From UHGV virus genome UHGV-0229283: a stretch of 64,000 nt of DNA; one strand, 5' to 3'. Under the pieces are notes generated by a model, which made no database searches, was not told the DNA's origin, and saw only the letters and a program-made list of their open reading frames with translations. Shown here in pieces: positions 23,672 to 39,112 of this stretch; within the stretch, counting starts at the first letter, position 1; every line of letters begins with the position of its first letter. Made by a program: the position numbers and the translations under genes. Source of the DNA: a virus.

Positions 23672-24487
23672 ATGACTACTATTTTAAACACTCTCGAACT
23701 TATCCCCCATAACAAGGTTAGTTATGATTTTCCTAACGTGCGCGGCGACCTTGAAAGGCTTTACCTTGATGCAGTATATGCCCTTGGTGGTGTAGAATTC
23801 TCTACTGACGAGACTGATGAGAGGACTTTCAATCAGGCCAAGGCCAGCGTGGAAAGTGTGCTTGATGACCTTAAGCAATACGCTACAGGTTCAGAGGTTG
23901 AAGGGCTTCTCGATTATGCAAAAGACACTGAACGTGCCTTTGTTGAAAGAGGTGAGTATGTACTCAATGCCATGCGGCGCATGAACAAGTTCAGTAAGGA
24001 TATCTTAGATATCGACAATACCTGGAACAGAGAAGACATTGCAAATGGTGTTGCCTGGATCGCAGAGCAACTGGGTGAGATGTTTGATGGAGGCTCCCAT
24101 ATACGGTACATGATGCAGAATCGAGGATGGCGAGACCTGTATCTTGATTACCTCGTGAACCTTGTCGGTAACCCGGTAGTAGAGGTGCTTGCACATTATT
24201 CTTCTGCTCATGATTTGGTGTATGGTGTCGATGGTCGTATCAAGATTTCTGATAATACCGTTACACTTATGAATGGCCCTACTTCCTTGGTCCTTTCTCC
24301 TATTCCCGGTGATATGCGTATTGTTTACACAGTCCCAGGAAAGACAGAACGGTTCCTGATTTCTGTATTGAGCACATTTTTCATTGACATTTGTAATCCG
24401 ACTCCAGATGAGATTCAAATGTATGAGATTTCTACAGGTACAACCTATGATATCCGTAAATGGAAGGAGATATTTGGAGGTAGATGA
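23672..24487 (+). CDS. hypothetical protein
   Basis: The ORF-track start is TTG. The start is moved to MTTILNTLEL. Confidence 0.5.
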   Translation: MTTILNTLELIPHNKVSYDFPNVRGDLERLYLDAVYALGGVEFSTDETDERTFNQAKASVESVLDDLKQYATGSEVEGLLDYAKDTERAFVERGEYVLNAMRRMNKFSKDILDIDNTWNREDIANGVAWIAEQLGEMFDGGSHIRYMMQNRGWRDLYLDYLVNLVGNPVVEVLAHYSSAHDLVYGVDGRIKISDNTVTLMNGPTSLVLSPIPGDMRIVYTVPGKTERFLISVLSTFFIDICNPTPDEIQMYEISTGTTYDIRKWKEIFGGR

Positions 24488-25062
24488 TGAATTTAAATTC
24501 TGAGATGGAATCAATACCGTCTACAAAACATCGAGGTAAGGTCTGTGGTATAGGGGTTAACGATGCGCCTTTTACCACCAGTATGCGTAAAGATGGTAAG
24601 ATGTATCACCACACAGCCTATAAAGATTGGCATAACATGATAAATAGGTGTTATAGTGGAAAGTACCCATCTTATCGGGGGGTTGTTGTATCTGAAGAAT
24701 GGCACCACTTCATGGATTTTTATCTTTGGTGGCAGATGAATTATCATGATGGTTTTCAACTTGATAAGGACCTCTTTGGTGATAAGTTAAAATACAGCCC
24801 TGCAACATGCAGATACATACCTTTGTGGATGAACTGTTCTTTACATGGTGGTGGTAAACCTGGTGTACATTACCACAAAGCCTCTGGCCTTTATCGCTCA
24901 GGAAAGGATGGGATATTTGGTACATTTGAGGATGAGGATTCTGCTTGGAAAGTTTGGCGTAATAATTTTGTAAATACAAAAGATTATGATATTTGGAACA
25001 GCCTGGATATTTCAATCAGGGAGAGATTTTGTAAATTGAAAGACATTTGTATGATATTTTAA
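24484..25062 (+). CDS. phage paralog-family protein (paralog of 18021..18647)
   Basis: Shares the CGIG(V/I)NDA...W...M..R motifs with the other copy. Confidence 0.5.
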   Translation: MMNLNSEMESIPSTKHRGKVCGIGVNDAPFTTSMRKDGKMYHHTAYKDWHNMINRCYSGKYPSYRGVVVSEEWHHFMDFYLWWQMNYHDGFQLDKDLFGDKLKYSPATCRYIPLWMNCSLHGGGKPGVHYHKASGLYRSGKDGIFGTFEDEDSAWKVWRNNFVNTKDYDIWNSLDISIRERFCKLKDICMIF

Positions 25063-25301
25063 TTTTACATGATATTTTAAAATTCGAAATGGTTTTCAAA
25101 ATCGTTTTTGAAACGGATTTCATCTTCCCTGCAAATTTTTAAATAAAGAGTTTTGGGAGTAGGTTATCTCAAACCTTTGTGGAAGCTATGTCGAAAAATG
25201 ATGCACAAGTGTATGATTGCTATAGGTATCTTGGCATCAAGATTGGACATTTATCTCAAATAGGCGAAAAAGATATCTCAAATTTTCAGGTAGAAAACTC
25301 T

Positions 25302-25510
25302 GGGTTCTCGATCGACTTTTCGTTTTCAAAAACGTATTTGCTCTCACTATCAAAAAATTTTTCTCTATATCAACCGGGTTCTCGATCGGTTTTTCAAAAT
25401 CGAGATCGTAAATGTTTTTTCTCTAGAAAAAATTTTTCGGCCCGGTTCTCGATCGAGATCTCAATTTCCAGATCGTATTTGTTTTCTTACGCGAAAAAAT
25501 TTTTTAGGGG
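25302..25510. repeat. three degenerate tandem repeats of about 70 bp
   Basis: Each unit begins GGTTCTCGATCG (at 25302, 25376 and 25444) and ends in an AAAAAATTTTTC tract. The region is AT-rich and ORF-poor. Confidence 0.5.
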
Positions 25511-25883
25511 TATCGCTCAGTATATCACATGAAAATCAGAAGTCAATATTTAAATTTTTTGTTGAATGAGAAGCATTCTTATTTAGTTATTTGAATGATA
25601 ATCATTCTCATTTGCTGAATGACAGGCACCCCCGGTGTTTTGTACTCCGGTTTCAATGTTCCCGCTATGTGTATAATATAGGATACACGGCCCCAGGTTG
25701 CAAGCGTCTTTACAATTCTTTACAAATAGACTTTAGGCGAGCTACCGGCGATCCACCTTCCAACCAGGTCTCCGCGCCTGGTATGTTAGCCCCGCCTTTC
25801 CGCCGTGGGGTGGCGTCTCTTCTCCTGTCTGATAAATATAACCCATGTCGGGGCCGTTTGCAAGCCCCGCGATAAAATATTTT

Positions 25884-26069
25884 TTACTCCCAGGAGTCCG
25901 CGAGCACTTCCCCATTTTCCGCTACAATTCTCACCCTGGTAAATCCTGCATTATACATTTTCAACGCGAAGGGTAAAGGCACGATCCTAACCTGGGGCGC
26001 TGCGCTTTCCGTCTCCCAGGTGGAAAGGGTGACCATTGTCTCACTCGTTGTTACTTTTGCGTTTTCCAT
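25884..26069 (-). CDS. hypothetical small protein (61 aa), block-type RBS
   Basis: Preceded on the minus strand by AAAGGTAAACGAAATG, which is identical to the Shine-Dalgarno used by plus-strand genes in the block. Confidence 0.45.
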   Translation of the reverse strand: MENAKVTTSETMVTLSTWETESAAPQVRIVPLPFALKMYNAGFTRVRIVAENGEVLADSWE

Positions 26070-26173
26070 TTCGTTTACCTTTATTTGTGGGCGTCCTTAT
26101 ATAGTACACTAACCAGGCCTGGGCGCAAGCCCACACGAACAAAAATATTTTTAATTTATTTTCATCCAGGGGA

Positions 26174-26202
26174 TTGACGGCAATTAGTAAAGCGCTTACT
26201 AT
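26174..26202 (+). promoter_or_regulatory. sigma70-like promoter
   Basis: TTGACG, a 17-nt spacer, then TACTAT, about 45 nt upstream of the gene at 26250. Confidence 0.45.
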
Positions 26203-26249
26203 CCATCTCATCAGGTCCCCCGTCGCCCACACTTAAAAGGTAAAATAGA

Positions 26250-26543
26250 ATGAAAATTTCCGCTAACAAACAATTGATCGACACTGTAAAAAATTATATC
26301 CGCCACCCGTATGAGTTCGGTGGGTATCCGAAAATTTTAATTATGCGTGATGGTGGTTGCCTTTGCTCAAAGTGTACGCATGAAAATTTTACCCGCCTAT
26401 TGGAAGAATTAAGGGATGAGAGTGATCTGGCATGGATGCCAGCCGATGTGGGTATTTTCTGGGAAGGTGCGGATTTCCCATGTGGTAATTGCCAGACTCC
26501 GATCCCTAGTGCATATGGAGATCCCGAAGAAGAAGAAGAATAA
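26250..26543 (+). CDS. zinc-ribbon protein with polyglutamate C-terminal tail
   Basis: AAAAGGTAAAATAGAATG start context. Contains CLCSKC...CGNC and ends DPEEEEE. Confidence 0.55.
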   Translation: MKISANKQLIDTVKNYIRHPYEFGGYPKILIMRDGGCLCSKCTHENFTRLLEELRDESDLAWMPADVGIFWEGADFPCGNCQTPIPSAYGDPEEEEE

Positions 26544-26551
26544 ATATTTAA

Positions 26552-26587
26552 TTGACACGGGCCAGTGTCCGGGGTTACAATCCCCGG
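26552..26587 (+). promoter_or_regulatory. sigma70-like promoter with the -10 in a hairpin loop
   Basis: TTGACA followed by GGTTACAAT. The -10 lies inside the hairpin CCGGGGTTACAATCCCCGG. Confidence 0.4.
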
Positions 26588-26631
26588 ACCTGACAATCAA
26601 AACAAAAAACTACACAAATCGAGGTTACAAC

Positions 26632-26799
26632 ATGAAAAACATTTCTTTTACTACCCGTGACCAGGCCCGCGCTTTTGCCCGTAATGTTAACAGCAAGGTA
26701 ACCACGGCGGCGCGTTTACGTCAACCTGTTAAAGATGGCGCCGGGCAATGGGTTATCCCTGGGATCAACCACGGCAAAACCTTATCCCTGGCTAAATAA
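26632..26799 (+). CDS. hypothetical small protein (55 aa)
   Basis: ORF 26416..26799 trimmed to MKNISF, which has a CGAGGTTACAACATG start context. Confidence 0.45.
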   Translation: MKNISFTTRDQARAFARNVNSKVTTAARLRQPVKDGAGQWVIPGINHGKTLSLAK

Positions 26800-26892
26800 A
26801 ATATTTTATCCTGGGCGCTTGCTTTCAGTTAGCGCCTTTGATAAAGTGTTTTCTCAGGCGGCAAGGGCCGCGATAAATCGAGGTAAAAAGCA

Positions 26893-27678
26893 ATGTCTAC
26901 GTTTAAACTTAATAATGGTCTGGTTGTCAACTCTGAATCCGAGATCGTGCATAGTGTACCTGGTAAAAAATCCACAGCAAAAAAGGGTTATGTATTATAT
27001 AAAGGCCCGTCAGTCCTGGATAAGGCCCCGATCGTGGTCATTGCTACAATGTCAACCGCTAACGATAAAACAGGCGACATGGTTCAAACCTGGATCATGC
27101 GAGAAGATGTTAGCCCACTGGAAGCAAGCGCGAAAAAACTTGATTCCTCCGTTTGCGGTATGTGTCCCCATCGTACCAGCTTAAACGGCGCTTGTTATGT
27201 GACGCTACACCAGGCCCCACTGTCAGTCTGGAAGTCTTACAAAAAAGGCAACTATAAAGACCTTGATTCTCGCGATCTGGTACATTTTGCGGGTCGTCAT
27301 ATTCGTTTAGGTTCCTACGGTGATCCGGCGGCGGTTCCTTTTGAGGTATGGCAAAACATGATCAACCATACGCAAGGTAATACGGGGTACACTCACCAGA
27401 TCAACCATAAGAATTTTGATCATCGTATCGCTACCATTTGCCAGATCTCCGCCGATACGGAAAAACAAGCGATCACAGCATGGCGCAAGGGTTATAAAAC
27501 TTTTCGCGTGAAAACTCCCAACATGCGCCGCCTGGAAGGGGAGATCACTTGCGTTAATACAACTCACAATATTAGCTGCTTAGATTGCGGCTTATGCGAT
27601 GGTAAACGCGCCAACGTCGTGATCGACGTTCACGGCAGATCCGCAAAAAGATTCGATAAATTCGAACGTATCATTTGA
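26893..27678 (+). CDS. hypothetical protein with Cys clusters (CGMCPH, CLDCGLCDG)
   Basis: 261 aa with a CGAGGTAAAAAGCAATG start context. Confidence 0.55.
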   Translation: MSTFKLNNGLVVNSESEIVHSVPGKKSTAKKGYVLYKGPSVLDKAPIVVIATMSTANDKTGDMVQTWIMREDVSPLEASAKKLDSSVCGMCPHRTSLNGACYVTLHQAPLSVWKSYKKGNYKDLDSRDLVHFAGRHIRLGSYGDPAAVPFEVWQNMINHTQGNTGYTHQINHKNFDHRIATICQISADTEKQAITAWRKGYKTFRVKTPNMRRLEGEITCVNTTHNISCLDCGLCDGKRANVVIDVHGRSAKRFDKFERII

Positions 27679-27751
27679 CAACCGCCACACGATAACAGAT
27701 AATACAAATCAGCCGGGGAATTCTCCCCGGCCCTAGCAAGGGTAAAATATC

Positions 27752-28021
27752 ATGGCAATGAATCTCAGGTCTTTAAAGCTTATGCGCGATTTTAACAAGT
27801 GTTTTCACCAGGTCGCCCAGTATGGCGAGTGTATCAGCATATCAAAAGAGGCCTACAACGTGGATCACTTCCATCACGGCCCTGATTGCCTGATCTCAGT
27901 CCTTGTTAAAAAATTTAACTATCTTGGGCATGAATTCACCTTTAAGATCTCAGATCTTGATAATAAATATTATCTAGCTGGCGATATATGCGCCGCTGGC
28001 TGGAAAGATTTAAGAAAATAA
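27752..28021 (+). CDS. hypothetical protein
   Basis: 89 aa. The CCGGGGAATTCTCCCCGG hairpin sits directly upstream of its Shine-Dalgarno. Confidence 0.5.
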   Translation: MAMNLRSLKLMRDFNKCFHQVAQYGECISISKEAYNVDHFHHGPDCLISVLVKKFNYLGHEFTFKISDLDNKYYLAGDICAAGWKDLRK

Positions 28022-28097
28022 TATTTGACACCAGGCCCGGAAAGGGCCTATAATTACCAGGCACCAACAAACTAAACACTAAACGAGGTAAAATATC

Positions 28098-28610
28098 ATG
28101 GGCTGGACTGGCATTTATTCTAATCTTAATAACAAAAAATTTGTTGAAAATTATCTGACTGATAACCGCGTGATCGAAACTTCTGTTGTAGGCAATGAAG
28201 TTTATCAACTTGCAAGGGCGAGGGATGAAAGTCTTTACATTCGTGTAACAATTCTTTCTCGTAAAGATGGTATGGTCTTTTATAAAGATATGGATGAAAC
28301 CTGCGGCCCGTGTTATTATAACTGTCCTGAAAAATTCCTTAAGCGATCCATGCAAAAAGATGAATTTTCCGTTAATTGGCGTGCCGCTTGCCGTAAACAT
28401 GCCAAATACAAAAAAGAGCAGAAAGCATTGATTGACCGGATCAAGATCCTGAAAAACGGCGATCGCGTGGAAATGGTATCCGGTCGTGTGGTTGTCTTTG
28501 AGTTCCCACATAACCGCGCCCGATTTGCTGGACGCCTGGCGGATGTTGCACCAGGTAAACAAAATTCTCTTTTTGCATGGTCTTATAAAGACGTTGCAAA
28601 GATTCTTTAA
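28098..28610 (+). CDS. hypothetical protein
   Basis: 170 aa with a GAGGTAAAATATCATG start context. Confidence 0.55.
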   Translation: MGWTGIYSNLNNKKFVENYLTDNRVIETSVVGNEVYQLARARDESLYIRVTILSRKDGMVFYKDMDETCGPCYYNCPEKFLKRSMQKDEFSVNWRAACRKHAKYKKEQKALIDRIKILKNGDRVEMVSGRVVVFEFPHNRARFAGRLADVAPGKQNSLFAWSYKDVAKIL

Positions 28611-28669
28611 ACCGCTATACTGATTAAAGCCGGGGAATTGTCCCCGGCATAACCTAAAAGGTAAACAAA

Positions 28670-29053
28670 ATGGCCTACATGAATAAAGAGAAGAAAGCTA
28701 AAATTGTTGAAGCGGTTAAAGCTGTATTGCCGAAGGGTTGGAAAGTTACGTTTAAAGTAATTCACTATTCTACGATCCGTTGTACCGTTCGATCCGCGCC
28801 GTTCAATTTGAATGATGTTTTAGATTTAACAGATTGGGAACGGGAAAACGGGCACAAGGATTTAAACACATACCACTATGAAAGATATTGCAAAACTCCT
28901 GAATTCAAAAAGGCTGTTGGCGAAATCATCGAGGCATTAAATACAGATAATTATAACAATAGTGATATAATGACAGATTATTTTGATGTCGGTCACTATA
29001 TCGGCCTACATTTTGGCGGCCATGATAAGCCATTTAAAAACAGCGCCGCGTAA
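28670..29053 (+). CDS. hypothetical protein
   Basis: 127 aa. The CCGGGGAATTGTCCCCGG hairpin is followed by AAAAGGTAAACAAAATG. Confidence 0.55.
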   Translation: MAYMNKEKKAKIVEAVKAVLPKGWKVTFKVIHYSTIRCTVRSAPFNLNDVLDLTDWERENGHKDLNTYHYERYCKTPEFKKAVGEIIEALNTDNYNNSDIMTDYFDVGHYIGLHFGGHDKPFKNSAA

Positions 29054-29159
29054 TATGAAAGAATTGTTGATTCTACTCATATTTTGTTATTATGCAAAAA
29101 TTCACGTCAGGATCTGGCGTGTTATAAAATGGTTTTACTACTGGTACAGGGTTAAAACA

Positions 29160-29417
29160 ATGTTCCACTATATAGAATATCGCTTCCAGGGGGAGGATTA
29201 CCACACCAGGAGATCCGGGCCGTTAAATGATTTGGAGGGTAGCGGCCTGATTTGTGAGATTAAACACCGGGGAGGCGTGGTCCTGGTACATAAAGAGGGA
29301 TCCTTCGACTACATCGAAGAGCTGATCGAATATCGCAAAAAACAGATCGCGGAATGGCGAGCGGAAACATACAACCACAGGGGATCAAGATATGACAGCA
29401 AAAAGCCGCAACTTTGA
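29160..29417 (+). CDS. hypothetical protein
   Basis: ORF 28983..29417 trimmed to MFHYIEYRF, which has a GGGTTAAAACAATG start context. The upstream part looks like a promoter or regulatory module. Confidence 0.4.
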   Translation: MFHYIEYRFQGEDYHTRRSGPLNDLEGSGLICEIKHRGGVVLVHKEGSFDYIEELIEYRKKQIAEWRAETYNHRGSRYDSKKPQL

Positions 29418-29607
29418 GAAGATGACAAGCCAGCGCGATCGCCTTGCTTTTGGTGAGACTAACGAGCGGCGCGAGCGTAACAATAAACGGCATAAGCCGG
29501 AACGGATCGCGGTTCAATGGTCGCCGGACCAGTATGATCCGAAGCTAAATAAACGCATCGCCGATCGTAAGCGTAATTTGCAGCGATACGCCGTAGCAGG
29601 TGAATAA
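29392..29607 (+). CDS. hypothetical basic protein
   Basis: 71 aa, Arg- and Lys-rich. Confidence 0.4.
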   Translation: MTAKSRNFEKMTSQRDRLAFGETNERRERNNKRHKPERIAVQWSPDQYDPKLNKRIADRKRNLQRYAVAGE

Positions 29608-29640
29608 CCAGTCCGGGGAATTATCCCCGGTTTTTTTTAT
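29601..29640 (+). terminator. rho-independent terminator
   Basis: CCGGGGAATTATCCCCGG followed by TTTTTTTT. Confidence 0.6.
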
Positions 29641-29941
29641 GCAAAAAAGTGAATTTAGCGAGATCTCAGCGTAGCAATGCACTTACCAGGGTTACAGATT
29701 GAAGCGCTTAGAATCGATTTGAGGGCGTTTTAGATGGTATCCGATAACCGCGCCCCGCTCAAAACGTCGCAAATTTAGTTACCGGTTGAAACTAATTGCA
29801 TAACAGCGATTTTCTATGCACATCACTGCATATGAGAACAGTTCTCAACAATTCTTAAAAATATTTGTTGCATCCTGGCGGCGTTATGCTATCCTTTAAT
29901 CAGTGGCGGAATTCACCGCCACACTGAAAAAGGTAAACACT

Positions 29942-30118
29942 ATGGAAAAGCAAAACATGTATAAAACGGCCTATAGTTCTGAATTTTGTTGTTATGTTGG
30001 GATTAATCGCGCTTGGAAAGATTCAAATGGTAAATGGATTTTTGAGTGTTCAAATGTGGCAAAGGGCCTAGATAATTTCCTTTTTCGTGAGTCAGAACTA
30101 GAAAAATTTTGTCTTTAA
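29942..30118 (+). CDS. hypothetical small protein (58 aa)
   Basis: ORF 29903..30118 trimmed to MEKQNMYK, after AAAAAGGTAAACACTATG. Confidence 0.45.
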   Translation: MEKQNMYKTAYSSEFCCYVGINRAWKDSNGKWIFECSNVAKGLDNFLFRESELEKFCL

Positions 30119-30121
30119 TTG

Positions 30122-30151
30122 TTGACACTGGTTAATGTGTGGGGTTATACT
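30122..30151 (+). promoter_or_regulatory. repeated early-type promoter (copy 1)
   Basis: TTGACACTGGTTAATGTGTGGGGTTATACT, then CACATTGACAAGTGAAACAAA. Confidence 0.55.
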
Positions 30152-30196
30152 TCCTACACATTGACAAGTGAAACAAATAACCAAAAGGTAAACAAC

Positions 30197-30481
30197 ATGC
30201 AAAACGTAAAATCTGAAATCGCCGCTCTTGAATCAAAATTCCTGGGCAAAATGGTGTATCATAACTATGGTCAAATCGCTTTTGGCGTGGTAACCGGAAT
30301 CGATGATCGCGATCCCAATAAATTACGTTTACGCGTGAAGTTTACCCGCAACAATACTCCGGCGCATATCAAAAAATATGACAACCGCGCGGATCGTGTT
30401 CGTTGCTTACTCCCTCAATCTGTTACCGTGTCCCGTGTTCAATATGGGATCTATAATCAGACAAACCAGATCAACAAATAA
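30197..30481 (+). CDS. hypothetical protein
   Basis: ORF 30119..30481 trimmed to MQNVKSE, after AAAAGGTAAACAACATG. The 5' part of the ORF is the promoter. Confidence 0.55.
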   Translation: MQNVKSEIAALESKFLGKMVYHNYGQIAFGVVTGIDDRDPNKLRLRVKFTRNNTPAHIKKYDNRADRVRCLLPQSVTVSRVQYGIYNQTNQINK

Positions 30482-30519
30482 TCAATAGCGGGGCCTTGCG
30501 CCCCATTAAGGCGGCTACC

Positions 30520-30738
30520 ATGTTTGGATTTATTATATTGGCTTGTCATATTTCTGTTAGTTCGATGGCATTACAATGTGATTGGAATGTTAAAAAAACA
30601 TTCCCCACGGAACAGGCTTGCAACGTGTACGAAAACGAATACACGTTAGGCAAAGGCGAGCAGATCGGGATCTGCGATGAGTTAGACCCCGGCGTTAAAG
30701 AAGGCGATAAGCGCCCTATTCTCACCCTCAAAAAGTAA
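30520..30738 (+). CDS. putative secreted or lipoprotein small protein
   Basis: MFGFIILAC... is a hydrophobic N-terminus with a possible lipobox ILAC. Several Cys residues. Confidence 0.45.
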   Translation: MFGFIILACHISVSSMALQCDWNVKKTFPTEQACNVYENEYTLGKGEQIGICDELDPGVKEGDKRPILTLKK

Positions 30739-30748
30739 GGTAACGATC

Positions 30749-30940
30749 ATGTTTGAAGTATTCGCGGGTATGTGCTTTTATGGTGCGCTGGCTTTAAAAC
30801 AGTGTGATGATTATGTAGTAGAAAGCTATGATGATCAATTGACTTGCGAGATCGTCGCCGTTGACTATCAGCGCCAGGGGCGCTGGATTAATCCGGCCTG
30901 CATACCATCGCCGGAAGTCGAACCGATGCCGGAAAGCTAA
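30749..30940 (+). CDS. hypothetical protein
   Basis: 63 aa with a TAAGGTAACGATCATG start context. Confidence 0.5.
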   Translation: MFEVFAGMCFYGALALKQCDDYVVESYDDQLTCEIVAVDYQRQGRWINPACIPSPEVEPMPES

Positions 30941-31023
30941 AATAATCATTGATCCCCCGGCCCGGTTAGGTTATATTACTTGGACCGGGCAAGATTGGCC
31001 CACTAACAAAAAGGTAAAATAGT

Positions 31024-31347
31024 ATGGAAAAGGCAAACAAATTTTTCTTTCTGGAAAATGTTAATGACAATGTTAATTGTGACTTTAATCGCCAGGGTGA
31101 AAAAACCATGCTAGTATTTTGCCATGAGAATGACAGCGAACAAACGGACCGTTTAACCGTCCTGATCCGTACTGAAAAATCTATTCAATCCCATAGCGGA
31201 AAACTTGAAAACCGCCACTTTATCGCCTACACGCTTGAAAGAAGCGGAGTAACAATAAAACAGGCTGACAGCCTGCCTATAACTACCCCGGATCTGGTCT
31301 GGATGTTTACAACTGCTATTGTTAACGATGTTTTCCGTTCTAACTGA
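31024..31347 (+). CDS. hypothetical protein
   Basis: 107 aa with an AAAAAGGTAAAATAGTATG start context. Confidence 0.55.
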   Translation: MEKANKFFFLENVNDNVNCDFNRQGEKTMLVFCHENDSEQTDRLTVLIRTEKSIQSHSGKLENRHFIAYTLERSGVTIKQADSLPITTPDLVWMFTTAIVNDVFRSN

Positions 31348-31360
31348 TTGAGAAAATTAA

Positions 31361-31395
31361 TCTGAAAAGTCGCTTGCAAACGTGAGCGACTTTTA
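31361..31395 (+). terminator. rho-independent terminator
   Basis: AGTCGCTTGCAAACGTGAGCGACT followed by TTTTATT. Confidence 0.55.
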
Positions 31396-31452
31396 TTATA
31401 TTTAATGCACAGGGCGGCAATGGTGCGACGGCCCAAAATAAAGGTAAACGAA

Positions 31453-31617
31453 ATGAAACTTTCCCAGCAATTTGCTCAAGAATGCCGCGAAGAAGCGAAG
31501 TATTATTTTGATCGCGCCTTGCAAGCGAAAGCAGAAGGCCTGAATTATTCCCGCCGTGTTTGCTTACAGGTCGCTTTATTGAATCGCAAAAACGCCCGTA
31601 AATGGGCCGCCGAATAA
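31453..31617 (+). CDS. hypothetical small protein (54 aa)
   Basis: ORF 31405..31617 trimmed to MKLSQQF, after AAAGGTAAACGAAATG. Confidence 0.45.
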   Translation: MKLSQQFAQECREEAKYYFDRALQAKAEGLNYSRRVCLQVALLNRKNARKWAAE

Positions 31618-31621
31618 TTTG

Positions 31622-31650
31622 TTGACACTGGTTAATGTGTGGGATAAGAT
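31622..31650 (+). promoter_or_regulatory. repeated early-type promoter (copy 2)
   Basis: TTGACACTGGTTAATGTGTGGGATAAGAT, then CACATTGTCAAGTGAAACAAA. Confidence 0.55.
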
Positions 31651-31703
31651 ACCCGCACATTGTCAAGTGAAACAAAAAAACCACACAAAACGAGGTAAAC
31701 AGA

Positions 31704-32474
31704 ATGACCACTAAAATCACCGTTACTTATTACATCGACTCCGGCAAGCTGAATGCAATGTATACATTGCGCCGCCGTAATTTTGGCGGTGGCGTTTTTG
31801 TAGATTCTTACATTTGCAATCTTTCAACCGATCCCCAAAAAGCAGAAAATAAAGCAAAGGAATATTTTGATCGAGTAACCGCGCGGATCGCCAATACAGA
31901 AAACTTTGAGCAAGTTTTTGCAGGCTATGCGGATTTTGAGCTGGGGCAACGTCGCGGTAAATTGTCGATCGTCGATACGGCCCGGATCGAAGAAATCGAA
32001 GCGGGGCGCTTTCCGTTTGGCAAGCATTGCGGTAAAACGTTTGCCGATGTTAAAGAATCATATGTTTTATTTTTTGCTGATATGGCAAACAAGCCAGACA
32101 ACGGCCCGGTAATGGAAGCATTAAGCGCGGCTTGTTTGGGCTATGCTCTTGATCATGGGTACATTGCAGCCCGTGACCAAAAACGCGCCGAGCGTAAGGC
32201 CGAGGATTTAAAAAGCAACTGGATCGGCAACATTGGCGATCGCCTGGTTTTTGAGGGTGAGATCGTTTTTTCTTATCTAAAAATTGATGAGTGGAGTTTA
32301 TCATCTTACTATATTATAAAAATTCGCCAGGGTGACGATCTGGTTACCTACATCGGATCAAAAGAGTTAGGCCCGGTTGGCGCGGTTATTAAGTTTAAAG
32401 CTACCGTCAAAAAACATGATACATATCAAGATGTTAAAACAACCGTTGTAAACCGTCCCGCCATTATGGCATAA
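31704..32474 (+). CDS. hypothetical protein with DUF3820-like FPFGKHCGKTF motif
   Basis: 256 aa with an ACGAGGTAAACAGAATG start context. The (M/F)PFGK(H/Y)xGKT motif resembles DUF3820 and the ExoX C-terminal motif. Confidence 0.5.
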   Translation: MTTKITVTYYIDSGKLNAMYTLRRRNFGGGVFVDSYICNLSTDPQKAENKAKEYFDRVTARIANTENFEQVFAGYADFELGQRRGKLSIVDTARIEEIEAGRFPFGKHCGKTFADVKESYVLFFADMANKPDNGPVMEALSAACLGYALDHGYIAARDQKRAERKAEDLKSNWIGNIGDRLVFEGEIVFSYLKIDEWSLSSYYIIKIRQGDDLVTYIGSKELGPVGAVIKFKATVKKHDTYQDVKTTVVNRPAIMA

Positions 32475-32522
32475 TGTACACCAGGCCCCGGATCGCCGGG
32501 GCAACTTTTAGAGGTAAACAAA

Positions 32523-32813
32523 ATGAAAAATGTTAACGCGCTGTTAGAAAAGGCTGAAAAATTAGTCTGGGCGGAAATAGAAAAGAAAGTAACAAAAATT
32601 CTACTGAGTGAACGCAACGCAGCGCGGGGCTTTATTTGTTGTATGGGCGGTTATTTCTGGATCGACAGCAACGGCGATGCAATAGACGATCGCGCCTGGA
32701 TGAATCCTGTTTTCAATATCTTTGATAAATACGATGATGCTTTCAAGCTTACGGGGATCGGTTGGCGCTGGGATCTGGTTAATGGCGAGGTTGTAAAAAC
32801 AACCGATTGGTAA
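32523..32813 (+). CDS. hypothetical protein
   Basis: 96 aa. The hairpin GGCCCCGGATCGCCGGGGC is followed by AGAGGTAAACAAAATG. Confidence 0.55.
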   Translation: MKNVNALLEKAEKLVWAEIEKKVTKILLSERNAARGFICCMGGYFWIDSNGDAIDDRAWMNPVFNIFDKYDDAFKLTGIGWRWDLVNGEVVKTTDW

Positions 32814-32969
32814 ATGCAAATGATACGTTTTCTCAATATGCGATCTGGTAAAATTTATCGCTGGATTGAAAACCGTGTTTTGGTTGAAACGACAAAAGGC
32901 TGGCGACGTGTAGATCACTTGCGCCCCGCCGATCTGGCTTGCTTTCCTTTCATGGGGATTAAAAAATGA
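32814..32969 (+). CDS. hypothetical small protein (51 aa)
   Basis: Unlisted ORF MQMIRFLNMRSGKIYRW... coupled to its neighbours by TAAATG and ATGA overlaps. Confidence 0.35.
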   Translation: MQMIRFLNMRSGKIYRWIENRVLVETTKGWRRVDHLRPADLACFPFMGIKK

Positions 32970-33433
32970 TTAGTGTACGAATGTTTTATTACGATGAATT
33001 ATCAGAACAGGCAAAAGCCGCCGCCCGCGCTAACGTTGTGATCCCCGAGGTGGAAGCACTGATTCGTAATGTTGGCAACGCTCGCCAGGCCTGGAAGGAA
33101 AACATTCACCGGGCAATTAATGACCCTTATCACGTCCGCCGGATCTACAATGGACAAATGGCGCTTTACAAAATCCGGCACCAGGGCGAGGCTTATTTGA
33201 TACCCTACATCCGGCAAAACTGCACAATTTATCTGGCCGATGGATCATATGTTTACTATGATTGCAACAAAAAACGGATCGCTATTGTTAACAGTGGTTA
33301 TCATGGATTATTACCCGACGATCTCCAGGTGGCGGCGCGTGATGAATATGTAAGAGTAAACGATCGAGGCCCGGCATACTTTAGAAAATTATATTCCGAC
33401 ATTGCAAAGGCGAAGAGATCCGGCCCGGCATGA
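32966..33433 (+). CDS. hypothetical protein
   Basis: 155 aa. Confidence 0.55.
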   Translation: MISVRMFYYDELSEQAKAAARANVVIPEVEALIRNVGNARQAWKENIHRAINDPYHVRRIYNGQMALYKIRHQGEAYLIPYIRQNCTIYLADGSYVYYDCNKKRIAIVNSGYHGLLPDDLQVAARDEYVRVNDRGPAYFRKLYSDIAKAKRSGPA

Positions 33434-33800
33434 TAGGAAAATCTTTACAATTCCAGGGCTTGTTTTCGGTCCTGGTTTTTGTTATTCTGTTTTTGAAGCG
33501 GCAACGATGGACACCGGAGGAAAGTCACCGGAGGTGCCCGCCATTCTGGTAATGAGAATTACTCTCAACAACGCCTAAAATCTTATGCAAAATAGTGAAT
33601 ATGGCGAGATCTCCGATAAAATGGACTAGGGTACAGCCTGGACGAAAAACCGCTTAAAACTCGTTACAGGGCGTTTAAAGGCCATATAAAAACAACTTGA
33701 CACGGGAAAACGGCTAAAAAGTAATTTCACCATGAAATCAATTGCATAGCGATGCATAAAGATGCAAAAAGTGAATAATGTAAAGATACGTAAAGAGCTA

Positions 33801-33829
33801 TTGACAGCGATCCCCGCTTATATTATTAT
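33801..33829 (+). promoter_or_regulatory. sigma70-like promoter
   Basis: TTGACA, a 17-nt spacer, then TATTAT, upstream of the gene at 33879. Confidence 0.4.
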
Positions 33830-33878
33830 TTATCTCGTAGGGCAAACAAACGAAAACAACTTAACGAGGTAAACGAAA

Positions 33879-34238
33879 ATGACTATCATCAATCTGAATT
33901 CTACTGTTAAAGGTAAAGATTTTGGCGGCGTAGTAGATCATGATCCGATGTGGTCGCTTTCAGTTTTCAAAGGCGATTTAATCGACGTCGTTACCCTGGA
34001 TGGCCCGAGCGACGATTACAAATGTGAAATTCATCTCACTAACTGGTACACTAACAAAACTTATGCTCTTGATCGCGTGATTATCGGTAGAATTGAATCA
34101 CTGACAGACGAAGAGACCGGGCAAGATTTTGATTATTATATCAATAGCTCTGATCGCGCTGATCGTCTGCTGCAAAAGATTAAAGAAAAAGGCGTTATTG
34201 ATTTAGCTCTTTGGGTGGACGTTACAGAAAGCAACTAA
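33879..34238 (+). CDS. hypothetical protein
   Basis: 119 aa with an ACGAGGTAAACGAAAATG start context. Confidence 0.55.
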   Translation: MTIINLNSTVKGKDFGGVVDHDPMWSLSVFKGDLIDVVTLDGPSDDYKCEIHLTNWYTNKTYALDRVIIGRIESLTDEETGQDFDYYINSSDRADRLLQKIKEKGVIDLALWVDVTESN

Positions 34239-34242
34239 GTTA

Positions 34243-34275
34243 ACAGATTAAAAGGCGTTTAGATGAGCGCCTTTT
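34243..34275 (+). terminator. rho-independent terminator
   Basis: AAAGGCGTTTAGATGAGCGCCTTTT followed by GAT. Confidence 0.55.
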
Positions 34276-34313
34276 GATAAGTTATCACCAACAATCAAAA
34301 GAGGTAAAAAACA

Positions 34314-34643
34314 ATGACTAAATCAGAATTCTTTAAAATGCTGGATAATCATCTAGAATCACACAACTACACTTTCGATCATTTTGGAAATCGAATCAAG
34401 CGAGAGGATCGCCAGTATACAGCAAACGAGATCGAGGCCTTCACACATAGCGAACCAGAAGAGAAGATCGTGAAACTTAAAGCGGCGGATTCAAATTATC
34501 CTTGGATTTTTCATTCTTCCGGTTGGTGCCTTGCGGATTGTTGGTATATCACCGCTATCTCACATAGAACAAAAGCGGCGGCAGAAAAGCAACATAAGAT
34601 TTTTACCCGCTGGATCGCTGAGTATAAAGAGCTTAACAAATAA
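34314..34643 (+). CDS. hypothetical protein
   Basis: 109 aa with an AGAGGTAAAAAACAATG start context. Confidence 0.55.
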   Translation: MTKSEFFKMLDNHLESHNYTFDHFGNRIKREDRQYTANEIEAFTHSEPEEKIVKLKAADSNYPWIFHSSGWCLADCWYITAISHRTKAAAEKQHKIFTRWIAEYKELNK

Positions 34644-34691
34644 TCAAACCGGGGCGCTAGCCGCCCCGCTATCCTTTGAGGTAAAGCAATT

Positions 34692-34922
34692 ATGATTAAT
34701 ATTAGTGTTGACAAGTTAGCCGAAATCATCCAGAAGGCAGGAGATGAGAAATACGGCGTAAATGATTTTTATTTCATCGGGCAGTATGAGGACGGTCGCT
34801 ATTATGGCGTGTTGTCTAACAAGGTGAAAAGCCGTAGCAGCGCCGCACAATTGCGCCGCCCGGAGTTTTTAGAACAAAAGGGCCTTAAAGTAATAAAAGT
34901 AATGAAACGCAAAAAAGGTTGA
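34692..34922 (+). CDS. hypothetical protein
   Basis: 76 aa. A CGGGGCGCTAGCGCCCCG hairpin lies upstream. Confidence 0.5.
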   Translation: MINISVDKLAEIIQKAGDEKYGVNDFYFIGQYEDGRYYGVLSNKVKSRSSAAQLRRPEFLEQKGLKVIKVMKRKKG

Positions 34923-35134
34923 TGATTATGAAAACTGTAAAAGCAAAAGATTTAAAAGGCGGAATGATCATCGAATTACCGGACATTGCACCAGGCTTTA
35001 AACCTGGTTTAGTGACTATCACACAAATAGAAATCGAAGCGCCCCACATTGTGGAAGTATCTTTCTATTACAAAAAGCGCTATATGGCCGACCTTTATCA
35101 CCCTGAGGCGGAATTTAAACTAATCAGTGAATGA
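34919..35134 (+). CDS. hypothetical protein
   Basis: 71 aa with an ATGA overlap. The start could instead be MKTVKAK, 9 nt downstream. Confidence 0.5.
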   Translation: MMIMKTVKAKDLKGGMIIELPDIAPGFKPGLVTITQIEIEAPHIVEVSFYYKKRYMADLYHPEAEFKLISE

Positions 35135-35237
35135 GGCTGTAAAGAAAAGGCAAACCGCTTGCCTGGCCAGATGTTTTCGACTATTATTTATTTCAGGGCG
35201 GGAAGATAACCAACCCGCAAAACCGAAGGTAAATAAA

Positions 35238-35408
35238 ATGTCAAATATCCGCTACAATATCAAAAGCACTTCAAAAACCGGTTATGTGTCTTATGTTCGC
35301 CAGGGGTCTACAATGGCTTGGACCTTTGAAGAATGTATGAAAATTGTTACTACGCTTTCAGGTGATGATCGCTATATGGGCGTTTTATTTGAGATTGAAT
35401 TAGCTTAA
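35238..35408 (+). CDS. hypothetical small protein (56 aa)
   Basis: ORF 35127..35408 trimmed to MSNIRYNIK, after CGAAGGTAAATAAAATG. Confidence 0.45.
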   Translation: MSNIRYNIKSTSKTGYVSYVRQGSTMAWTFEECMKIVTTLSGDDRYMGVLFEIELA

Positions 35409-35440
35409 ACATCGGGGCGCTATTGCAGCGCCCTTTTTCG
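35409..35440 (+). terminator. rho-independent terminator
   Basis: GGGGCGCTATTGCAGCGCCC followed by TTTTT. Confidence 0.6.
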
Positions 35441-35482
35441 TGTGTTATTCTTTTACCTCCCTCATTAAACGAGTAACACCAA

Positions 35483-35746
35483 ATGACAAACATGATTTAC
35501 ACTGTAAGCAAAACAAGCCTTTTACGCGCTACCCTGCTGGCTTGCCTTATTGCTTTAGTGTCTAATACGTGTTTTAACTGGCTGGCTTGCCTGGTAACGA
35601 CGGAAACAATGGCGCAAGGGTTTAACACCATGATCGACGTTTTACAATTGACGTTTTACACTCTGATTAAACTTAATCGCTTTAATCGTTTAGACCGTTA
35701 TGATCTCCCTTTCTTGATCGCTGGCCTGCTGGCTATCGCGCTGTAA
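35483..35746 (+). CDS. small membrane protein
   Basis: 87 aa with two or three hydrophobic helices. It is the last gene of the block. Confidence 0.5.
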   Translation: MTNMIYTVSKTSLLRATLLACLIALVSNTCFNWLACLVTTETMAQGFNTMIDVLQLTFYTLIKLNRFNRLDRYDLPFLIAGLLAIAL

Positions 35747-35764
35747 GGCTCCACTACTCCCCAA

Positions 35765-35800
35765 AAATAATGCCGGGCAACTCCCGGCTTTTGTGTTTTT
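35765..35800 (+). terminator. rho-independent terminator
   Basis: GCCGGGCAACTCCCGGC followed by TTTTGTGTTTTT. Confidence 0.55.
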
Positions 35801-36160
35801 ATATGTTAGGTTTTATCAATCAATAATCAAAAAGTGATAGGTGACTAAAACCTGCATAATCGAGATCTCCAGGCGGTAACCCACTAGCCAGGGTAAGAGA
35901 TAAAGCCTCTCAGAATGGCGCATATTGCGCTTAAAAGGGTATGGCCCTACCTAACAACCCCAACAATTAATAACGCATGTTATTAACTGAATAAAACATG
36001 CATTTTTAAGCATTATGTATGCATAGTGTGAGAATCACTCTCAAATGATAACTTTTATCATCTAACCTATTGTGTGAACTGGTTTTATTGAGCATAAAAA
36101 TAAAATCTTGTCAAATAAAAATCGTTCGCGTAATCGTGGGGAGTGGCGCGAGCGTAGCGA

Positions 36161-36364
36161 GCGACACAATAACACTAGGGTAACTCAAATGCGAACAAAT
36201 CGCATTCTCGTTCGCGTTATCGTGGCTCGTAGACGCTACGATCAAGGACGAAATTATTACAGTGTATTATCATTACATCCGTAATGATTAGCAATGGAAC
36301 TTTATCACATCGCCACGATAACACCGATCAACTATCGTTGATCGCCCTAGTGTTATTGTGTCGC
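36161..36364. repeat. perfect 20-bp inverted repeat pair flanking ATCGTGG/CCACGAT iterons
   Basis: GCGACACAATAACACTAGGG at 36161-36180 and its exact reverse complement at 36345-36364. Between them are CGCGTAATCGTGG, CGCGTTATCGTGG and CGCCACGATAACACC. Confidence 0.5.
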
Positions 36365-37491
36365 TGGTGATGGTAACACCCCGTTATTATTATGTGATTA
36401 AATGAAATTTAATGGTTGACAAATAGCAATAAATCACTTGCCAATGTGGGCCTATGGCCTATGGAAAGGCCTGTTTTTGAGCATGGAAGAAGTGTAAACT
36501 GTCAAGTGTTTTTATTATCGAAAATTCCTATCAATGCCTTGCGTGGCAATAAAGAAAATAGTTACTTATTGTAACTATTTCAATGCTTTAGCATTGCCGG
36601 GTATCCGGTCCGTAACGGGCTTATGTGAGAATAGTTATCATTGGGGAAATGCTCAAAGTATAGCTGTGTGTTAAACACGATTCTCTCTCCTTGTCAAGCT
36701 TTTATTTATAAATTTACAAAATATTTATATTTGCGGAATGATTCTCATTTCGAAATTGAATTCGAAATCGAAATAATAATGATTCTCATTCGTCATCTCA
36801 TTCACAAAACAACCCTAAAACATGAATAATCACACATGAAACTATCACCACAGTAACAGTCACACCATGTAATGACCTGAAGCGGCTGGCCTATGCGTCA
36901 CACTGGTAACATTGGGGCATTATTAGCTTGCTATGTGTTGTTGGTCAGTGCGTATAACGTGTTTTATGTTAAATGGTGTAATTCATATAAATATAAGCTT
37001 GTCAATAGCAAATCGTGCTCTAAGCTGGCAAACCATATGCTTGCTATATGTCACATTTGATTATTATTAGTTTCGGCAAGTAACTATCATGCCTGAAGAG
37101 GCCCCGAGGAACCGGGAACCGGATCGACCTTGCCCATGATATTTTGTAAAGATCCGTAAAAATATTTGACGCCCGGAGCTGTCCGTCTAGCACCGCAGAT
37201 GGTGAGAACAGGATATTTTTCGGCAAGTGATATTTTCGGCAGGGGGCCTGTTTTGATTTCCCCACGGGGGAAGGGGTGGTTATACGGGGAAAACAGGGGC
37301 CTGTTTACGGTATCGACATATCGGGGAGTCCCTTCAGATTGTGTGTTAATGAAATGAGTACGTAGTACAATGAGAATCATTCTCATTTACAGACAACCGG
37401 GCAGGTCCGGTGATTGTTTCGTGCAGCCTCAGCACCTGTTGCTGTGTGCAGGATAACAGGGTTGCCTATTCAGGTCAACCCCTTCGTGCGG

Positions 37492-37779
37492 TCACCACTG
37501 ATGAAATCTTTTGTGCTCCCATCTCGCCCGGCTGATGATACACCACATAGCCTGTTCATCATAGAAACCAAGCGCTTTAAGCTCTTGCTTCACATCGCTC
37601 AACTGTGCGTATAAATAAAGCTTTTTACTACCTTGACGCAGGAGGATAGCTGGTACAAGTGTCTTTGCATAGTCCAACAACACCTCTATTCTCTGCCTTT
37701 TCCCTTCAGATTTCTTGCGTGGGCAATTCCTGATGTGTGCCAGTTTTGCTGGCGCTTTTACTACTTTGTTGAAAGCCAT
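37492..37779 (-). CDS. hypothetical basic protein
   Basis: 95 aa, Lys- and Arg-rich. It is the most promoter-distal gene of the leftward block that begins near 41.9 kb. Confidence 0.5.
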   Translation of the reverse strand: MAFNKVVKAPAKLAHIRNCPRKKSEGKRQRIEVLLDYAKTLVPAILLRQGSKKLYLYAQLSDVKQELKALGFYDEQAMWCIISRARWEHKRFHQW

Positions 37780-38195
37780 AGAGGTTCCTTAAAGAATGGT
37801 TGTGATGATCAGACATTGTTGTGTGGTTCTCATCATTGCATGGGTGGCCTGGCCCGTTGGAGGGTCGTTATTGTCATCATCGTCATCTACGAATAAGGTA
37901 AGGACCACCACCACGATGGCAACAATCCCCAACACCCAAAGAACTATAAGTCCCATCATTCATCCTTCTTAGCCACTGGCCCAATAGATACGTACAACAT
38001 CATCCCATAAGGGATAAGGATCAGGAGCACTGTAATCAGCATCCCTAGTAATAAGAAACCCATGTCGTCCATAAAATTCTCCTCGTGTAATTGATAGAGG
38101 GAGTATAATCGCCGAGCCTGTTTACGTCAAGGTAAATTGATGCTCCACTTTAGATAAAAGAAAAGGAGCCTCTTCAGACTCCCTTGTGGTGTGGG

Positions 38196-38624
38196 TCAGA
38201 TATTCTTGACTGCGATCAGGTTTGGGACATACGTACATGTTGGGGAGTAAGTGGTGTCCTTCCTGCGAAGCTGTGTCTTGCACAGAGAAGCATGTGATTG
38301 TGTGTCCACAGGCTCTCGGTCATAGAACGGATATCCGCTGCACATGTACGGGCGATCCTCGTAAATTGAGCACTTGTTGTCTTTCAGCTTTGTGCAGGTA
38401 AAGTAGCTGGTGAAGTGATTTGTTCCTTTACCAACTTCCTCACGACCTGCAACAACAAGAGGATTCCGTTTGTAGGCCTCATCCCTGGAGATTGGTTTCA
38501 TCATCTCCCCGTGGATAGCAGATATTCTTCCGGCCCTGATTTTTTCGTGGAAGTCTTCGTGGGTGATGTTGTCTATGGCGATAACTTCACAACAGGCACT
38601 GCAATTATGGCAATGTTTTATCAT
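38196..38624 (-). CDS. CxxCxxCC zinc/iron-chelating domain protein (YkgJ/UPF0153-like)
   Basis: HCHNCSACCEV motif near the N-terminus, with additional Cys residues. Confidence 0.5.
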   Translation of the reverse strand: MIKHCHNCSACCEVIAIDNITHEDFHEKIRAGRISAIHGEMMKPISRDEAYKRNPLVVAGREEVGKGTNHFTSYFTCTKLKDNKCSIYEDRPYMCSGYPFYDREPVDTQSHASLCKTQLRRKDTTYSPTCTYVPNLIAVKNI

Positions 38625-38909
38625 TTATAACCTCATCCAGGTTTGATAGTCAGCTTCTGTGTGGTGCTCATCCCGTGCAACCTTTTGTGGTGGAGCAGGG
38701 TTCTTTGCAGCAGCTTCCATGATTCCCCGTGGGTCGGGGTCTTCAATCAGGTGTTTGTGTTCATCACAGGCGTAATGCTTGTACCAGTCACGCAGTCCCC
38801 ACGGTGGTTGGTATTTCGTCATAACTGTGCAGCGCCTGCGGATGCCAATGGCTTTGCAGAATTTGCAGTAGGTTATAGGTTTGCACTTCTTCAGCGGGAT
38901 ATGTTTCAT
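38625..38909 (-). CDS. Cys-rich hypothetical protein
   Basis: 94 aa with CKFCKAIGIRRRC...YACDEHKH. Confidence 0.45.
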   Translation of the reverse strand: MKHIPLKKCKPITYCKFCKAIGIRRRCTVMTKYQPPWGLRDWYKHYACDEHKHLIEDPDPRGIMEAAAKNPAPPQKVARDEHHTEADYQTWMRL

Positions 38910-39112
38910 TAATAGTAATCCTCAGGTCCACCCATATACCAGGAGTCTGGTGCATCACCCAGATCAGCCTCTCCCCAGTCACGGCTCTTTTTGCCTTTGG
39001 TCTGTTCCTTTCCAAAAAGAGCAGTCCCGTCAAGAAGGTGGCCCATAGCTTTCTCGCCCTTTTTGACGATCCTTCCACGGGCATTCCATTCTTCAAATGT
39101 TCTGTAGGCCAT
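38909..39112 (-). CDS. hypothetical protein
   Basis: 67 aa. Confidence 0.4.
   Translation of the reverse strand: MAYRTFEEWNARGRIVKKGEKAMGHLLDGTALFGKEQTKGKKSRDWGEADLGDAPDSWYMGGPEDYY

Follow-up and report, generated by a model that had tools for sequence, protein, structure and literature searches.

Fur-box-like palindromes as candidate host Fur operators in the control DNA of a virulent Klebsiella myovirus

The virus genome UHGV-0229283 was analysed over a stretch of 64,000 nucleotides (hereafter the window), which carries a family of short non-coding palindromes resembling the binding sites of the bacterial iron regulator Fur. We conclude from their sequence and placement that these palindromes are probably operators for host Fur, read by the Fur-Fe2+ dimer, in the non-coding control DNA of a virulent phage. 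Judged by nucleotide identity, the window is part of a virulent Klebsiella myovirus of the genus Mydovirus (Vequintavirinae): positions 24000–39000 are 95–97% identical to Klebsiella/Proteus Mydovirus phages, including vB_Kpn_K18PH07C1, Mydo, KpS8 and KB57, and Mydovirus relatives are ~145-kb virulent myoviruses. Fur boxes are known, including on temperate-phage cargo genes; what appears to be new is the presence of candidate Fur operators in virulent phages, within their control and terminal DNA, which suggests that such phages tie early events to the host iron regulator.

The sites surround and punctuate a plus-strand block of small hypothetical genes at ~26.2–35.7 kb, delimited from annotated relatives and called a cassette in the original prediction, a model's reading of the same DNA. 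Two large non-coding regions (25063–26250 and 35750–37490) border this early block.

Sequence and distribution of the palindromes

The original prediction described Fur-box-like palindromes with two 7-bp halves around one base (7-1-7). Every site that it listed was found, two of them with offsets of one or two bases: the copy placed at 25566–25580 lies at 25567–25581, and the half-site AATGATTCTCATT placed at 36739–36751 lies at 36737–36749, the second half-site being 36778–36790. We scanned the window with the pattern TGAGAATNATTCTCA, using 100 dinucleotide shuffles as background. At up to three mismatches there were 13 matches, against 5.5 ± 2.6 in shuffled sequence, and none of the 100 shuffles reached 13. 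All eight copies with at most two mismatches fall within 25567–37385, i.e. 11.8 kb (18%) of the 64 kb, both at the edges of the cassette and inside it, as predicted. The perfect copy reported at 37371–37385 indeed has no mismatch; 25596–25610, 33553–33567 and 36029–36043 have one each, and 25567–25581, 36626–36640, 36774–36788 and 29833–29847 have two each. The copy TGATAACTTTTATCA was confirmed at 36046–36060. The motif extends to a 19-mer, AATGA(G/T)AATNATT(C/A)TCATT, for which the window has 12 hits and shuffled sequence 1.7 (maximum 5). The sites at 25594–25612 and 37369–37387 match it at 18/18 positions, and the E. coli consensus at 15/19. The complete 146-kb genome of the relative KNP2 has six sites at 16/18 or better, and every one of them is confined to the homologous ~11 kb.

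Small open reading frames (ORFs) can be drawn over two of the sites, at 33402–33578 and at 37087–37386, the ATG of the latter lying inside the palindrome. We rejected 37087–37386 as a gene because relatives differ there by many non-triplet indels, and the other frame spans a terminator hairpin and a promoter; the sites thus stand as non-coding, as had been proposed. Annotated or callable small ORFs at these two positions, and at 9755–9904 of record L001, are probably spurious.

A position weight matrix (PWM) was built solely from 11 published Gram-negative iron boxes (PMC10665472). Its top five hits in the window, at 25591/25597, 37366/37372 and 36775, are phage sites with scores of 15.4–18.5 bits, inside the leave-one-out range of true iron boxes, and at 12 bits or more there were six hits in the window against 2.0 in simulated sequence. 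Being small, the matrix is noisy, and a score of 23 bits arose in one of 40 simulations, so the significance of any single site is modest. Some members are weak: neither 36029 nor 36626 ranks among the top 30 hits, and 29833 is unlisted. Clustering and conservation across phages weigh more than single-site scores.

The E. coli Fur box is the 19-bp GATAATGATAATCATTATC, or TGATAATNATTATCA in its 7-1-7 form. The copy at 25596 departs from TGATAATNATTATCA at one position, not at two as first counted. The perfect copy at 37369–37387 is identical, letter for letter, to the Xanthomonas campestris Fur-box consensus AATGAgAATcATTctCATT, which has been aligned with the Shewanella and Bacillus Fur consensuses (PMC1790865). 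TGAGAAT halves are frequent among the Fur boxes of Acinetobacter baumannii (PMC3055841), and GATAATGAGAATCATTATT, an E. coli-type box in the Gram-negative list, has the same G at position 4 (PMC10665472). Consensus identity and PWM ranking therefore agree with the description of the sites as Fur-box-like. Since published boxes from Xanthomonas, Acinetobacter and the E. coli type show the same letters, G and C at position 4 of the halves are, as far as sequence can tell, ordinary Fur-box variation, and do not imply the divergent Fur-family regulator or dedicated phage repressor that they had been taken to suggest.

We collected 78 distinct phage boxes. Position 6 of the 19-mer is G in 44 and T in 31, and position 14 is C in 47 and A in 29. 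Almost no variation is seen in the TGA and TCA triplets or in the central AAT.ATT, whereas position 4 of the halves is free. In Fur–DNA structures, Arg57 reads a conserved G, Tyr56 contacts thymines and Lys15 enters the narrow A/T minor groove (PMC4506495), and the near-invariant TGA guanine and thymines of the phage boxes fit these contacts. All four half-site combinations occur (G-C 28, G-A 16, T-C 19, T-A 12; odds ratio 1.1), which again speaks against a divergent regulator. Just two of 137 departures from the consensus are compensated in the opposite half, and AATGATAATCATTCTCATT, the most widely conserved site, is asymmetric. The two halves thus change independently of each other and without compensation, as expected if a dimeric protein binds the DNA and not if base pairing in an RNA hairpin is under selection.

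Many boxes are overlapped by a second, weaker site (14/18) displaced by 6 bp, as at 25588/25594 and in JES2013, ESCO5, alia, KEY, phi1_175008, 4MG and T5; such overlaps are a feature of E. coli Fur clusters (PMC2189734). The exact 19-mer is present in at least 120 bacterial genomes. Ten genes starting within 90 nt of it, hand-picked among 23 candidates and none from Enterobacterales, encode four TonB-dependent receptors, two Peripla_BP_2 proteins, one PepSY_TM protein, one ABC ATPase, one SDR protein and one DUF2325 protein, so that iron-uptake types make up eight or nine of the ten in this hand-picked sample. The phage sites thus share with bacterial Fur boxes their sequence, dyad symmetry, position-4 variation and 6-bp-shifted overlaps. 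Unlike them, they adjoin no iron gene, lie at about +58 to +76 from a predicted start, often form 29-bp arrays and stand beside iterons or termini.

Modules, genome ends and arrays in other phages

Three of the boxes belong to a repeated unit consisting of a sigma70-like promoter, a conserved leader of ~55 nt and then the box or boxes. The box centre lies at about +67 from the predicted start, and across units one or two boxes are centred ~65–95 nt downstream. The predicted units, M1 to M3, and their immediate surroundings are as follows.

25703 to 25675, minus strand: M1 promoter TTGCAA-17-TATATT; hexamers conserved across phages, spacer variable.
25668 to 25613, minus strand, leftward to the boxes: M1 leader of ~55 nt (leader hidden Markov model (HMM), nhmmer E=3e-11; alignment).
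25594–25612 (core 25596–25610): M1 box B1, AATGATAATCATTCTCATT, with an overlapping site at 25588–25606; 18/18; top PWM hit, 18.0–18.5 bits.
25565–25583 (core 25567–25581): M1 box B2, AATGAGAAGCATTCTTATT; 16/18; 29 bp from B1.
25300–25504: iterons, three direct repeats of ~64–74 nt, CCGGGTTCTCGATCG...AAAAAATTTTT, immediately downstream of the M1 boxes.
29833–29847: degenerate box TGAGAACAGTTCTCA, in a partial copy of the M2 box and its downstream TCTCAACAA..TAAAA; weakest member.
33460–33488, plus strand: M2 promoter TTGTTT-17-TATTCT, inside a terminator hairpin (33453–33475).
33495–33550, plus strand, co-directional with the early genes: M2 leader (nhmmer E=1.5e-11; alignment).
33551–33569 (core 33553–33567): M2 box AATGAGAATTACTCTCAAC; 15/18; 10.2 bits.
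37478 to 37450, minus strand: M3 promoter TTGACC-17-TATCCT, aimed at the terminal repeat and left genome end.
37443 to 37388, minus strand: M3 leader (nhmmer E=8e-8).
37369–37387 (core 37371–37385): M3 perfect box AATGAGAATCATTCTCATT; 18/18; 15.4–17.3 bits.

Transcription would run from M1 into the three iterons, from M2 along the early genes and from M3 into the terminal repeat. Alignment of 21 distinct modules from 15 phages showed a near-invariant A at position 2 and an invariant T at position 6 of the −10 hexamer, a −35 of the form TTGxxx and a free spacer. The orientation of the modules was assigned because the hexamers are conserved while the spacer varies, partly as judged by eye. A plus-strand promoter under the box, TTGAAT-18-cAGAAT, was not adopted: its "CAGAAT" is in hexamer phase and could equally be an operator extension, and the minus-strand alternative has the conserved hexamers and variable spacer. 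The M2 box itself overlaps a weak promoter-like sequence, ATGAGA-18-TAAAAT (33552–33581). Searched with an HMM of the leader alone, the window yielded exactly the three module copies and the whole KNP2 genome two; T5, the T5-like phage KEY and the Vibrio phage locus yielded none.

The remaining boxes gather around the physical ends of the genome, which were located by homology.

36027–36062: adjacent boxes TGAGAATCACTCTCA (36029–36043) and TGATAACTTTTATCA (36046–36060), ~630 bp before the terminal repeat.
36188–36206: palindrome AATGCGAACAAATCGCATT; in Seunavirus its place is taken by a strong Fur-like box, AATGATAATACTTATCATT.
36624–36642 (core 36626–36640): box TGTGAGAATAGTTATCATT, ending 32 bp before the terminal repeat.
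36674–37187: direct terminal repeat of 514 bp, the physical genome ends; 97% identity over 514 bp to the annotated repeat_region of phage DP.
36737–36749 and 36772–36790: half-site AATGATTCTCATT and box AATAATAATGATTCTCATT, inside the terminal repeat, 63–116 bp from its left boundary.

The related phage KPP-1 has a 514-bp direct terminal repeat determined from read coverage and PhageTerm (PMC9862379), and the public records of several relatives begin or end within 36674–37187. The AATAATAATGATTCTCATT box matches at 17/18 positions (16.5 bits), and the M3 box lies 182 bp past the repeat. In an alignment with KpS11 and three Seunaviruses (~73% identity), most end-region boxes are kept in position while their letters drift within the Fur-box pattern. 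The 36046 box is kept in Seunavirus as TGA(T/G)AACTTTT(A/C)TCA, and the 36029 box in SSE121 and EspYZU12, not in 4MG; KpS11 and Seunavirus have a counterpart of the TGTGAGAATAGTTATCATT box in the same place, its right half TTATCAT retained, and the AATGATTCTCATT/AATAATAATGATTCTCATT region is conserved in Seunavirus.

Positions 35950–36670, before the terminal repeat, are unusually conserved non-coding DNA between Mydovirus and Seunavirus. This stretch contains long-range inverted repeats (GACACAATAACAC at ~36160 and GTGTTATTGTGTC at ~36350), direct repeats TCGTTCGCGT(A/T)ATCGTGG (~36123 and ~36210) and several CTTGTCAA motifs, and it probably serves packaging, replication or DNA entry in cis.

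Conservation of the sequence surrounding the M1 and M3 boxes extends well beyond Mydovirus. DNA homologous to the M1 leader occurs in rV5-, CR3- and phAPEC8-like and other phages, the AATGATAATCATTCTCATT 19-mer is identical in ESCO5, phi1_175008 and Mydo, and repeats similar to the M1 iterons are found in CR3, SSE121 and JES2013. Box numbers in the homologous non-coding regions vary: one in SSE121 and in W70, two plus one in the rV5-like JES2013, two in the Vibrio phage, four in CR3, ESCO5 and phi1_175008, and four to five in the phi92-like alia. Arrays of the same motif were thus seen in rV5-like, Certrevirus, Seunavirus, phi92-like and phAPEC8-like phages, a Vibrio phage and T5-like phages. 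The commonest spacing between boxes is 29 bp (28 of 50 neighbouring pairs).

The T5-like Erwinia phage KEY has about nine boxes adjoining iterons, and its array matches ~600 phage records, many of them T5-like, at ~9.5–10 kb or ~100 kb, where the long terminal repeats have their inner ends. In T5 itself (AY543070), boxes at 9552–9721 lie within the annotated injection stop signal (iss, 9140–10149), near the first-step-transfer shear point, and are followed by GTGCAAATCCGACA iterons. The iss palindromes palE–palJ and the DRC repeats belong to the same 19-mer family, with AATGAGAATCATTATCATT at 9656 and AATGAGATTGATTCTCATT at 9691. Davison's comparative analysis (10.1101/866236), in which Fur is not mentioned, lists these palindromes and DRC repeats and calls their function "impossible to guess". 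Like those of the iss, the window boxes at 25565–25612 are arrayed, beside direct-repeat iterons and at the inner edge of a terminal early-gene segment: the early block bounded by the M1 boxes (25565–37187) takes up the final ~11.6 kb ahead of the inferred right terminus, ~8% of 145 kb, and the T5 first-step-transfer DNA, which ends at the iss, is 7.9%. The two loci also differ. Paired DnaA boxes are present in the T5 iss, and the terminal repeat that contains it is 10 kb long, whereas that of the window is 514 bp, and the promoter–leader unit of the window is absent from the T5-like loci searched. DnaA boxes (TTWTNCACA) are not enriched in the window (11 against 7.6 expected) and none is paired; the sole match near a box region, 25668–25676, falls at the start of the M1 promoter/leader.

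Candidate readers of the boxes

The sites are shared by phage lineages that do not share the leader, which favours a host factor common to their gamma-proteobacterial hosts, and Fur fits as that factor on motif identity. A phage-encoded Fur, which the original prediction had proposed to look for, was rejected: with E. coli Fur as the query, tblastn over 50,697 phage records returned no homologue in Vequintavirinae, Stephanstirmvirinae or T5-like records, the query having been validated by a 99% match to a Salmonella contig. Nor did a Pfam search of 20 ORFs at 26.2–39.4 kb, most of them ORFans and within the 64 of ~145 kb that the window covers, reveal a helix-turn-helix or Fur domain; matches in these neighbouring ORFs were limited to Phage_30_8, CxxCxxCC and DUF7170.

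What the analysis establishes is the match to Fur boxes, the layout of the modules, their conservation and the signature of a protein site. Occupancy by Fur and its consequences are what we infer, and the proposed course is as follows. In an iron-replete cell, Fur-Fe2+ would occupy the boxes on the incoming genome. Because the boxes lie downstream of the predicted starts, we propose a block to elongating transcription, not promoter occlusion. Bound Fur might block or damp the passage of transcription, or of other DNA transactions, across the origin-like and terminal regions, such that transcription from M1 would stop short of the iterons, that from M3 short of the terminal repeat and that from M2 short of the distal early genes. 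Iron limitation could lift the block, as could dilution of Fur among replicated genomes, each with ~8–10 boxes. The arrays might also draw Fur off host promoters, with derepression of host Fur targets.

Several observations weigh against this proposal. The usual position for Fur repression is over the −35/−10 elements, unlike the M1–M3 boxes, none of which overlaps a −35 or −10 of its module and which lie ~58–76 nt past the predicted start; Fur clusters located downstream are reported to repress weakly (Chen et al., PMC2189734). The promoters and start sites of M1–M3 are themselves predictions. We found no documented precedent in a host Fur regulon for the 29-bp array spacing or the frequent ATTCGCATT half-site. 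The bacterial-neighbour sample, hand-picked and drawn from outside Enterobacterales, is supportive rather than conclusive, and the mostly ORFan early block may leave room for a phage-encoded binder. For the leader, RNAalifold on the 21-sequence alignment gave essentially no consensus structure (−0.35 kcal/mol), and single leaders fold no more stably than shuffles on either strand (z mostly −1 to +1). An outer stem of the AUAGCGGG/CCCGCUAU type, with A-U > G.U > G-C changes, was seen by eye, and we make no claim for a structured leader RNA.

The points about spacing and ORFans also speak for a rather unlikely alternative, in which the boxes are operators of a phage-encoded dimeric protein, the product of an early ORFan with Fur-like specificity, that regulates early transcription, replication or packaging. 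The early block is full of small proteins without assigned function, regular 29-bp arrays with variant ATTCGCATT halves resemble a dedicated phage system more than host promoters, and in the rV5/phi92 lineage the box is tightly coupled to a phage-specific leader. Yet T5-like phages array the same motif without that leader, the searches gave no shared candidate protein, no Fur-family gene and, in the 20 neighbouring ORFs, no helix-turn-helix/Fur domain, and nothing in the motif sets it apart from the Fur boxes of bacteria, in which the very same 19-mer precedes iron-uptake genes. The clustering around the terminal repeat and beside iterons, the same palindromes near the T5 shear point and the similar size of the two terminal segments could instead mark structural cis-signals for DNA-entry pausing, end recognition, packaging or origin function that work without Fur. 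We regard this as decidedly unlikely: without compensatory change, cruciform or hairpin pairing is not selected, sequence-specific half-sites suggest a protein reader, and DnaA boxes are not enriched. Such signals are, moreover, compatible with Fur as their reader and so are only partly a rival.

That the palindromes act in RNA, as A/U-rich hairpins for processing, termination or protein binding, is very improbable. The predicted promoters do transcribe into boxes and the palindromes can fold in RNA, but AATGATAATCATTCTCATT leaves a mismatch on either strand, the near-absence of compensated departures noted above argues against selected pairing, the stems would be weak, A/U-rich and without a U-tract, and boxes also occur where no leader or promoter was found (the T5-like arrays and the terminal-repeat boxes). 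Searches of Rfam with the whole window (gathering threshold) and with 25000–26300 (E≤10) gave nothing credible. Chance matches in A+T-rich non-coding DNA would account for the poor scores of 29833, 36029 and 36626 under a small, noisy matrix; they are scarcely credible as an explanation of the enrichment over shuffles, the confinement of close matches to 18% of the window, the positional conservation across genera and the arrays in hundreds of phage genomes.

Host Fur as the reader also has precedents of a kind. The stx1 gene of Shiga-toxin phages is a temperate-phage cargo gene with a Fur box. Fur boxes are likewise found on the cargo operon sitABCD of lambdoid coliphages (PMC6969025). These too are host Fur sites on phage DNA; they control a single bacterial-type operon in the lysogen, whereas the sites described here lie in the early, terminal and origin-like control DNA of a strictly lytic phage. 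Closer in lifestyle are the Bacillus phages phi29 and Nf, where sites for the host global regulator Spo0A are reported to steer early transcription and replication (PMC2731898). There, too, a virulent phage would track host physiology through host-regulator sites; the regulator, the host, the signal (sporulation, not iron) and the layout differ, and there is no sequence relationship. In the open-access literature searched for Fur with these phage groups and for lytic-phage promoters, we found no description of the sites as Fur boxes.

If Fur binds, iron status or Fur titration would feed into the early programme of therapeutic Klebsiella, E. coli and Salmonella phages, a phage could derepress the host iron regulon, and the old puzzle of the T5 palindromes would become testable with simple assays. 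A broader reading by analogy, which we consider quite unlikely, is that at least two unrelated lineages of virulent Enterobacterales phages (T5-like and rV5/phi92/phAPEC8-like) carry host Fur operator arrays at the inner edge of a terminal segment of ~8% with the host-takeover genes, that the T5 iss palindromes are Fur boxes, and that Fur on the entering DNA helps to pause or gate DNA entry, early transcription or origin firing. Were this so, phage commitment would be iron-dependent and rV5-like phages would be predicted to enter in two steps.

Early genes and other non-coding elements

The early block is rich in consensus sigma70 promoters, and we therefore take its expression to depend on host RNA polymerase. 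Most early ORFs are ORFans, many encoding small proteins without assigned function, and only two early proteins are recognisable:

25884–26069: DUF7170 protein (E=1e-25).
33879–34238: T4 gp30.8 homologue (Phage_30_8, PF06019; E=4e-28).

The ORF at 26250–26543 (97 aa), called "DNA ligase" in relatives, has no Pfam support. In the operon just upstream of M3, a 142-aa protein (38196–38624, minus strand) has a CxxCxxCC (YkgJ-type) domain, a putative zinc- or iron-chelating domain. A scan of the window for tRNA and tmRNA genes found none.

Next to M1 lies a further conserved element, here termed part C.

25700–25828: part C, non-coding and highly conserved, with its own minus-strand promoter TTGCAA-17-TATATT at 25835–25863.

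Part C (~130 nt, ...CTACCGGCGATCCACCTTCCAACCAGG-loop-CCTGGTATGTTAGCCCCGCCTTTnCGCCGTGGGGTGGCG) retains 72–85% DNA identity from Mydovirus to phi92-like and phAPEC8-like phages, with indels that are not multiples of three; its promoter in ESCO5 is TTGACA-17-TATACT. It had no Rfam match, no covariation (the alignment is too conserved) and a weak alifold energy on both strands. Part C may act as a DNA element bound by protein, or it may be a small RNA, in which a small pseudoknot (CGCC..CCCC..GGCG..GGGG) is possible. In Raoultella phage Ro1 it is split by a 197-aa ORF (6420–7013, minus strand) without a Pfam hit, the C-terminal half of which looks AP2-like by eye; this may be an insertion of the homing-endonuclease type.

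A second repeated element, TTATGCAAAA(A/T)AGTGAAT(T/A)T(A/G)GCGAGATCTC, occurs at 29637–29667 after a terminator and at 33583–33613 after the M2 box, and its GAGATCTC core is also present in the third iteron, at ~25455.

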